Part shown: piece after piece, positions 47,178 to 48,521 of the stretch
Layout: the number at the start of each line of letters is the position of its first letter
Numbering within the stretch: position 1 is the stretch's first letter
Origin: Deltaproteobacteria bacterium
Lineage (GTDB): Bacteria > Desulfobacterota > Deferrimicrobia > Deferrimicrobiales > Deferrimicrobiaceae
Direction of reading: 5' to 3'
Assembly: GCA_016219515.1 (NCBI GenBank)
Contig: JACRMU010000065.1
Coordinates: forward strand, 1,705-65,704
DNA: 64,000 nt
Notes under the pieces: generated by a model
The model's database searches: none
What the model was told of the DNA's origin: nothing
What the model saw: only the letters and a program-made list of their open reading frames with translations
Made by a program: the position numbers and the translations under genes

Positions 47178-48521
47178 ATGGCGTTGACGGAGAGACTCGA
47201 GATCATCTTTCAGGACGTCATCAAGCGGAATCCCGGCTAGGCCGAATTCCACCAGGCGGTGAGGGAGGTGCTCGAATCGCTGGGGCCGGTCCTGGTCAAG
47301 TACCCGGAATTCACAGAAGCCAAGATCATCGAACGGATCTGCGAACCGGAGCGGCAGCTCATCTTCCGGGTGCCCTGGCAGGACGACAGGGGAGTGGTGC
47401 ACATCAACCGCGGGTTCCGCGTCCAGTTCAACAGCGCCCTCGGTCCCTACAAGGGGGGCCTGAGGTTCCACCCCTCCGTCTACCTTGGGATCATCAAGTT
47501 CCTGGGCTTCGAGCAGATCTTCAAGAACTCCCTGACGGGGCTGCCGATCGGGGGGGCGAAGGGCGGGTCCGACTTCGACCCCAAGGGGAAGTCCGACAGC
47601 GAGGTGATGCGGTTCTGCCAGAGCTTCATGCTGGAGCTGTGGCGGATCATCGGCGAGCACACCGACGTCCCGGCGGGCGACATCGGCGTGGGGGGGCGTG
47701 AAATCGGGTTCCTCTTCGGGCAGTACAAGCGGCTGACGAACAAGTTCGAAGCGGGCGTCCTCACCGGGAAGGGGCTCGTGTACGGCGGCAGCCAGGTGCG
47801 CACGGAAGCCACCGGGTACGGCTGCACCTACTTCGTGAATGAGATGCTGGCCAGCAAGAAGAACGGCTTCAAGGGGAAGAAGGTCCTCGTCTCCGGCTCG
47901 GGGAACGTCGCCATCTACACGCTGGAGAAGGTGCACCAGCTCGGCGGGAAAGTCGTCGCCATGAGCGACTCGAACGGGGTGATCCACGACGAGAAGGGGA
48001 TCAACCTGGAGACGATCAAGCAGCTCAAGGAAGTCGAGCGCCGGCGGATCAAGGAGTACTGCGATTCCCACAAGTCCGCCCGATACATCCCCAACGGGAA
48101 CATCTGGGACATCCCCTGCGACGTTGCGTTCCCGTCGGCGACGGAGAATGAAATCACCGGGAAGGACGCCAAGAAGCTGGTGAAGAACGGATGCATCGCG
48201 GTCGGCGAGGGGGCGAACATGCCGACCACGCCGGAAGGGGTGCACGTCTTCATCCAGGCGGGGATCCTCTACGGCCCGGGGAAGGCGGCCAACGCGGGCG
48301 GCGTGGCGACCTCGGGGCTCGAAATGCAGCAGAACGCCAGCCGGGAGGCCTGGGGGTTCGAGGAGACCGACATCAAGCTGCAGCAGATCATGCGGAACGT
48401 CTACGTGCTCTGCTCCGAGGCGGCGGAGGAGTTCGGGGCCCCCGGCAATTTCGTCGTGGGGGCGAACATCGCCGGCTTCATCAAGGTCGCCCGCGCCATG
48501 ATCGCGCACGGAATCGTGTAA
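47178..48521 (+). pseudogene. gdhA: NADP-specific glutamate dehydrogenase gene interrupted by an in-frame TAG at 47238-47240 (codon 21); intact GTG-initiated ORF from 47259
   Basis: From ATG 47178 (RBS gaggagggg): MALTERLEIIFQDVIKRNPG-[TAG][14 protein letters not shown]… aligns with E. coli GdhA …FLNHVQKRDPNQTEFAQAVREV…, putting the TAG where Gln (CAG) is expected. The remainder (420 aa) is fully conserved ([22 protein letters not shown]). Confidence 0.6.

Follow-up and report, generated by a model that had tools for sequence, protein, structure and literature searches.

The gdhA locus

The question raised by this locus is whether a stop codon near the start of a conserved metabolic gene is real and, if it is, how the cell reads it. 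In the stretch of DNA analysed here (64,000 nucleotides, hereafter the window), TAG at 47238-47240 lies in frame with the ATG at 47178-47180 and forms codon 21 of gdhA, the gene for NADP-glutamate dehydrogenase. Another 426 sense codons follow, up to TAA at 48519-48521, giving 447 codons in total with the remainder beyond the TAG intact. A sequence-only reading of this DNA had described the same layout, a strong ribosome-binding site and ATG, TAG 20 codons further on and an intact remainder, and direct inspection bears it out: GGAGG occupies 47167-47171 and the frame stays open to the terminal TAA. The parts of the locus are as follows.

47085-47112, plus strand: promoter-like site for gdhA (TTGACC, 16 nt, TAAAGT), a match from a consensus scan only, with a putative function
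47165-47173, plus strand: Shine-Dalgarno region GAGGAGGGG, core GGAGG at 47167-47171, 6 nt 5' of the ATG (direct reading)
47178-47237, plus strand: gdhA codons 1-20 (MALTERLEIIFQDVIKRNPG), 100% identical in DNA to the contig L090 described below
47238-47240, plus strand: amber codon TAG, codon 21; all comparators have G at 47238 (GAG, Glu) where the window has T
47241-48521, plus strand: gdhA codons 22-447 and TAA 48519-48521, with complete ELFV_dehydrog_N and ELFV_dehydrog domains
47259-47261, plus strand: in-frame GTG, codon 28, the nearest possible restart, 18 nt 3' of the TAG with a weak AGG upstream
47268-47270, plus strand: in-frame GTG, codon 31, the second possible restart, 27 nt 3' of the TAG with GAGG 3 nt upstream (sub-optimal spacing)
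48549-48570, plus strand: G+C-rich hairpin GGGAGGCC-TTTCGG-GGCCTCCC, 28 nt past the gdhA stop (direct reading)

The block TCTTGACC at the promoter-like site is kept in the related loci L083-L087, and a GGAGG-like purine-rich block occurs at the equivalent position in all relatives aligned. The hairpin is a possible candidate for the transcript end, on weak evidence; the terminator scan did not flag it because no T-run follows.

Identity of the interrupted gene

Read through with Glu at position 21, the protein scores 757.7 bits against the NCBIfam equivalog NF006929 in a profile search, aligning to profile positions 4-445 of 445; the curated cut-off of this profile is 536 bits. The 420-residue open reading frame after the TAG scores 728.2 bits (profile positions 29-445). 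Pfam domain PF02812 (ELFV_dehydrog_N) is matched over positions 1-128 of 129 and PF00208 (ELFV_dehydrog) over 1-241 of 241, and the hexameric glutamate dehydrogenase structures 5IJZ and 5GUD in the PDB align over residues 3-447 with E values of about 7e-199. By its equivalog score and its two complete ELFV domains the gene is an NADP-specific gdhA. Its frame is interrupted in the window, by the TAG at codon 21, and uninterrupted in L090, which has GAG.

Each of the 120 best database relatives (83-92% identity) aligns along 100% of the query, and all but one of them (119/120) are 447 residues long. They start at the aligned ATG, and their first 20 residues are as conserved as the remaining protein. 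In gdhA itself, residues 1-20 are identical at 19 of 20 positions both to the protein P0002 and to the product of L087, a related metagenome contig. The earlier view that these codons encode the GdhA N-terminus and are no leader open reading frame is thus upheld. A leader followed by a shorter gene can be discarded, since the 20 N-terminal residues are homologous to GdhA and the relatives are 447 residues long, and the same homology evidence disposes of a chance resemblance of the segment to GdhA. A protein scan of genome contigs returned, among the matches listed, relatives of at most 77% identity and no close genomes.

The codon replaced by TAG

Codon 21 is GAG in all six relatives aligned at the DNA level, in L087 and in L090. 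At the protein level residue 21 is Glu in 109 of 119 of the best database relatives, Gln in 10 and a stop in none; Gln does not occur among the 40 best-scoring relatives, all of which have Glu. Glu is also found in all 15 members of the 90% cluster, which are 90-98% identical to the window protein. On the aligned sequences, then, the change reads as a single G→T transversion at 47238 that converts GAG (Glu) to TAG.

The sequence-only reading had held that the TAG replaced a conserved Gln (CAG), and hence that an intact gene would have C at 47238. The Gln was assumed from a comparison with E. coli; the close relatives, L087 and L090 have Glu encoded by GAG. The base to look for is therefore G, and this is what L090 carries in a sequence identical to the window at the other 1,593 bases.

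TAG at codon 21 is absent from all of the at least 22 relatives examined and from L090. Belinky et al. 2021 (PMC7918605) distinguish a meaningful in-frame stop from a sequencing error by requiring that orthologues from two independent genomes or more have the stop. At this position we found GAG or Glu in six DNA loci, in L087, in L090 and in the 15 cluster members.

Contigs from the same genetic background

Exact look-ups of neighbouring window proteins led to contigs in the Logan assemblies from three sequencing runs with nearby accession numbers. Four of them were compared with the window.

L091, run SRR12113407: window 45860-47206, 1347 bp, 0 mismatches
L090, run SRR12113397: window 45860-47453, 1,594 bp, 1 mismatch
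L088, run SRR12113407: window 48477-49979, 1503 bp, 0 mismatches
L089, run SRR12113394: window 50725-51940, 1216 bp, 0 mismatches

L090 equals the window at 1593 of 1594 bases, the sole mismatch being at 47238, T in the window and G in L090. On L090 the gene is called from the same ATG, and its frame is open past codon 21 as far as the contig end. An allele with an intact GAG is therefore present on the same genetic background. The repeated recovery of 100% identical contigs from SRR12113407 and SRR12113394 indicates that the same strain was sampled repeatedly. Together, the four contigs cover 5,660 bp and show no difference from the window other than the one at 47238, so the window assembly is not generally error-prone.

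The T allele was found in no independent assembly: exact look-ups of the products that it would yield (420, 417, 383 and 51 residues) were unmatched. Nor did exact look-ups of the repaired proteins (Glu21 and Gln21) and of shorter products (92, 65 and 62 residues) return any record.

L091 ends at 47206, 32 nt 5' of 47238. We considered whether this end marks a de Bruijn bubble at the polymorphic base, but a unitig with k=31 should end at 47237, and the break is uninformative. L090 and L091, from two different runs, also share a break at 45860, just downstream of the stop of a PPDK-like gene, which suggests a branch in the assembly graph due to strain variation or a repeat.

A passage in 10.1101/2024.02.19.580942, drawing on He et al. 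2021, places the run with the neighbouring accession SRR12113421 in agricultural groundwater at Modesto, California. Judging by the proximity of the accession numbers, SRR12113394, SRR12113397 and SRR12113407 presumably come from the same project.

Age of the stop and constraint on the gene

The nearest distinct relative is the metagenome contig Ga0214473_10004710 (L087), which is colinear with the window over 11 kb and 96.4% identical in gdhA. Besides the stop, the two genes differ by 36 synonymous and nine conservative non-synonymous codon differences and by no insertion or deletion (dN = 0.0088, dS = 0.133, ratio 0.066). Codons 1-20 are equally conserved in this comparison, and the ribosome-binding site, start codon and N-terminal codons are untouched. 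With a dN/dS of 0.07 and no other lesion relative to L087, the event must be very young. It is far younger than the divergence of about 4% from L087, and there has been no secondary decay. When the comparable genes of the window (HypE, HypD, PPDK-like, Fic, aconitase, CBS, TerC and transketolase) are set against their syntenic relatives, gdhA alone has an internal stop.

A decaying pseudogene would be expected to show several lesions and a dN/dS near 1. It can be rejected on the single lesion, the ratio of 0.066, the lack of insertions and deletions and the absence of any other difference from L090. Unlike older pseudogenes, gdhA has no second lesion, and the event is so young that it has left no trace in dN/dS, still at 0.07. 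If gdhA is a pseudogene at all, the evidence is consistent only with a pseudogene at birth.

A new nonsense allele or a base error

Two explanations are alive, a very recent nonsense mutation and a sequencing error, and both were among the options raised from the sequence alone. We regard the former as the best reading and as somewhat the more probable state of affairs: gdhA in the window would be a recent nonsense allele from a groundwater population. A single, very recent G→T at 47238 would have turned codon 21 from GAG into TAG; the TAG would be read as an ordinary stop, and ribosomes loaded at the strong ribosome-binding site and ATG would release a 20-residue peptide. Trace amounts of enzyme, at most, might arise from basal near-cognate readthrough or from restart at GTG 47259 or 47268, with 27 or 30 N-terminal residues missing from the restart proteins. 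As a null or a strong hypomorph, the allele would segregate beside the intact GAG allele in a groundwater population of a Deferrimicrobiaceae-like bacterium, and the cell would tolerate the loss of GdhA through a glutamate synthase encoded 20 kb away. We infer that T is truly in the DNA of the cells, that translation ends at the TAG and that the cells tolerate the loss. For UAG, near-cognate readthrough at the basal level normally stays well under 1%.

The glutamate synthase genes lie in the same 64-kb window as gdhA.

21126-22562, minus strand: gltD, with Pfam domains Fer4_20 and Pyr_redox_2
22558-27132, minus strand: gltB, with Pfam domains GATase_2, Glu_syn_central, Glu_synthase and GXGXG

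Together they encode a complete enzyme, so glutamate can still be made by the GS-GOGAT route and the loss of GdhA is tolerable. Enteric gdhA null mutants likewise remain glutamate prototrophs through GS-GOGAT. In these respects the window gene resembles an ordinary amber loss-of-function allele: one substitution creates an early stop in an otherwise intact, conserved gene, an intact allele exists on the same background and a redundant GS-GOGAT route is available. What counts against a real allele is that nonsense alleles of so strongly conserved a gene should be rare at high population frequency.

The alternative, less probable though a serious contender, is that T at 47238 is a consensus error of the source assembly, arising from low-coverage sequencing or oxidative damage, from polishing or from a minority or erroneous path, and that the real gene is intact with GAG. 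The only independent assembly across 47238 has G and is identical at its other 1,593 bases; the T allele is found nowhere else, and no orthologous stop shared by two independent genomes or more (the test in PMC7918605) backs it. The gene shows no other sign of relaxed constraint, and the change itself is of a suspect kind, G→T being a classic artefact of oxidative damage during library preparation. Against an error stands the quality of the surrounding sequence, namely four independent Logan contigs that agree with the window at every other position of 5,660 bp and comparable genes free of frameshifts and stops. Consensus substitution errors in short-read contigs of at least 64 kb are, moreover, much rarer than real strain-level SNPs. 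That the change happens to be a nonsense change does not favour an error, since an error has about a 1-in-20 chance of producing a stop, the same as a mutation.

On either account, a newborn nonsense allele or a base error, the event is of an ordinary type in a well-known gene. The appropriate annotation of the locus is gdhA with an internal stop, marked as a pseudogene or a low-confidence base, and not a 420-residue protein starting at GTG 47259. If the T allele is real, a central enzyme of nitrogen assimilation has a loss-of-function variant that segregates in a natural population in groundwater, one with glutamate synthase as well; it would be a small, clean example, modestly interesting to population genomics and without interest for the genetic code.

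Restart, leaky expression and a maintained allele

A third explanation accepts the TAG allele as real and holds that the gene is functional and maintained, with restart at GTG 47259 or 47268, leaky readthrough or both, and that the stop serves to lower expression. We consider this very unlikely. The two in-frame GTG codons do lie only 18 and 27 nt past the TAG, the second with GAGG 3 nt upstream, and both Pfam domains fall wholly downstream of them, such that the 420-residue product retains 728 bits against NF006929. Shorter glutamate dehydrogenase families align only from residue 47-48 on, and an N-terminal helix is therefore not universal among these enzymes. There is a classical precedent in E. 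coli lacI, where early amber mutants undergo post-termination restart at downstream codons and produce restart proteins. The likeness to gdhA consists in the in-frame GTG codons less than 30 nt past an early amber codon; in contrast to the lacI proteins, the gdhA restart products are predicted only, and they would lack the invariant residues 23-27.

These residues (EFHQA) would be lost from any restart product and are invariant in 119 of 119 relatives, which makes full activity of such a product unlikely. Moreover, 119 of the 120 best relatives are full length at 447 residues, a well-spaced Shine-Dalgarno sequence is missing from both GTG codons and the RNA around the TAG has an unremarkable fold (z = +0.54). 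As a singleton that is not conserved, the TAG has left no time for selection to act. The restart at GTG 47259 put forward in the sequence-only reading thus stands as a possibility in principle, with no good Shine-Dalgarno sequence and no sign of selection for either GTG.

In-frame stops under purifying selection have been reported (PMC7918605), and the gdhA codon shares two of their properties: it is an in-frame TAG between flanks under purifying selection, and a one-step reversal to a sense codon is possible. It differs from them in that the stop occurs in none of the at least 22 relatives and not in the same-strain contig.

One could go further and suppose that the G/T pair at 47238 is a genuine polymorphism that recurs in a groundwater population and switches gdhA on or off (or between high and low), the amber allele being kept at appreciable frequency because low GdhA is sometimes advantageous. 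The benefit would fall under some nitrogen or energy regimes, restart or readthrough would supply residual enzyme, and a one-step reversion would restore expression. If this were true, the locus would illustrate in nature the in-frame stop as an expression regulator in the sense of Belinky et al. 2021, but we think it very improbable. Among known systems, the locus resembles gudB(CR) of Bacillus subtilis 168, a cryptic glutamate dehydrogenase allele with an in-frame 18-bp direct repeat (PMC3681913, PMC4285742). There, too, a single small lesion disables an otherwise intact glutamate dehydrogenase gene, with glutamate synthase supplying glutamate; the gene stays expressed, and its active and inactive alleles interconvert or coexist, to which the G/T pair in gdhA may be likened. 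The differences are that the gudB(CR) lesion is a repeat and not a stop, that the enzyme is catabolic and that the strain is a domesticated laboratory strain. Our literature search on natural gdhA nonsense alleles and lacI restarts gave nothing usable beyond PMC7918605 and the gudB papers.

Decoding of TAG as an amino acid

The least probable explanation, and one to which we give almost no credence, is that the TAG is decoded as an amino acid by pyrrolysine insertion, an amber-suppressor tRNA or a reassigned code. Its sole direct support is that the reading frame continues perfectly past the TAG; in addition, the organism probably recodes another stop, with TGA as a probable selenocysteine codon in FdhA and in a DsbA-like gene (see below). 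As had been argued before on the grounds that TAG is used as a stop elsewhere, reassignment across the whole genome is unlikely, given that at least six Pfam-verified genes of the window terminate in TAG where their proteins are expected to end. They encode HypE, HypD, HypB and the following three proteins.

3498-5042: Lpd-like protein, gene ended by TAG, Pfam-verified
5064-6146, minus strand: cytochrome c peroxidase, gene ended by TAG, Pfam-verified
6130-6132: TAG stop of the DsbA-like gene, Pfam-verified

In HypD, all 351 of 351 profile positions are matched, ending two residues before the TAG. No other in-frame TAG was seen in the window genes that can be compared with relatives. The 64-kb window contains no tRNA, suppressor tRNAs included, and no match to an Rfam family, and the Pfam scans of window proteins revealed no Pyl gene. 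The RNA fold of 47225-47330 is no better than that of shuffled sequences (z = +0.54; the GAG-bearing L087 gives z = +0.14), and with no Rfam match and so unremarkable a fold, a readthrough-stimulating RNA structure can be rejected.

The amino acid evidence is equally unfavourable. The position is Glu in close relatives and in the same-strain contig, whereas recoded sites stay TAG among orthologues, and the GAG allele on an identical background effectively refutes decoding at codon 21. The pyrrolysine TAG of methylamine methyltransferase genes resembles the present one in being in frame within an intact open reading frame; the gdhA TAG, unlike it, is not conserved, belongs to no Pyl family and occurs in a window with no Pyl machinery seen and with TAG as a normal stop. 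To our knowledge, GdhA is no Pyl protein. The option of amber suppression or pyrrolysine offered by the sequence-only reading consequently falls away: TAG is present in no relative, the window holds no tRNA or RNA family and the fold is unremarkable. The TAG in gdhA is no evidence for amber recoding, and its value is mainly for annotation and quality control.

Other features of the window

Two genes of the window contain an in-frame TGA. The DsbA-like thioredoxin-fold gene (6130-6750, minus strand) encodes a secreted protein with the signal peptide MKKGLATALL... and has TGA at 6565-6567, in the place of the first Cys of the DsbA CPHC motif (...IEFIDYQ[TGA]PHCKAAG...). The Pfam matches Thioredoxin_4 and DSBA begin right after the TGA. 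The gene is a candidate selenoprotein with selenocysteine in a 'UPHC' motif; a simple fold revealed no obvious SECIS hairpin 3' of the TGA (z = 0.09). The second gene, for the alpha subunit of formate dehydrogenase (10517-13846, minus strand), is split by an in-frame TGA at about 13061-13063 into one piece with Molybdop_Fe4S4 (13064-13846) and another with Molybdopterin and Molydop_binding (10517-13012). This TGA is at the classical selenocysteine position, and a stable hairpin starts about 10 nt after the UGA (-25.3 kcal/mol, z = -1.0). Nearby are genes for an FdhD-MobA fusion, FdhE, cytochrome b, MoeA, a ModE-like regulator and a tungstate/molybdate-type binding protein.

Downstream of gdhA, an extra segment of about 2.4 kb (48520-50900) separates it from the CBS-domain gene. 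Its G+C content is 0.46-0.59, against 0.65 for the window, and it carries genes for a PEP-CTERM/pAdhesive_15 surface protein (48926-49903) and a DMT_6 membrane protein (49785-50255). At this position only a minus-strand gene of about 160 residues occurs in L083, L084 and L086; the segment is a strain-specific insertion or replacement.

Upstream, on the minus strand, lies a Fic/DOC-family gene (45961-47025) whose conserved N-terminal region of about 75 residues has no ATG, GTG or TTG start. At the aligned start, L085 has ATG, L086 has GTG, and the window and L087 share CTG, which suggests that the gene uses a CTG start; the public gene call (277 residues from ATG 46794) is probably too short. 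We considered whether the absent start is a second lesion next to gdhA and rejected this, since CTG is also present in the sister lineage L087 and is not specific to the window. The divergent intergenic region between Fic and gdhA contains a tandem direct repeat, ATACCCGATT-ATACCCGATT, at about 47050-47075, which is invariant in the window, L085, L086 and L087 while its flanks diverge. On the minus strand a TATAAT within the repeat forms a promoter-like site for the Fic gene, and the conserved TCTTGACC block adjoins the repeat. The repeat may act as an operator for the Fic protein, whose C-terminal part is a MarR/DIP2311-like HTH domain.
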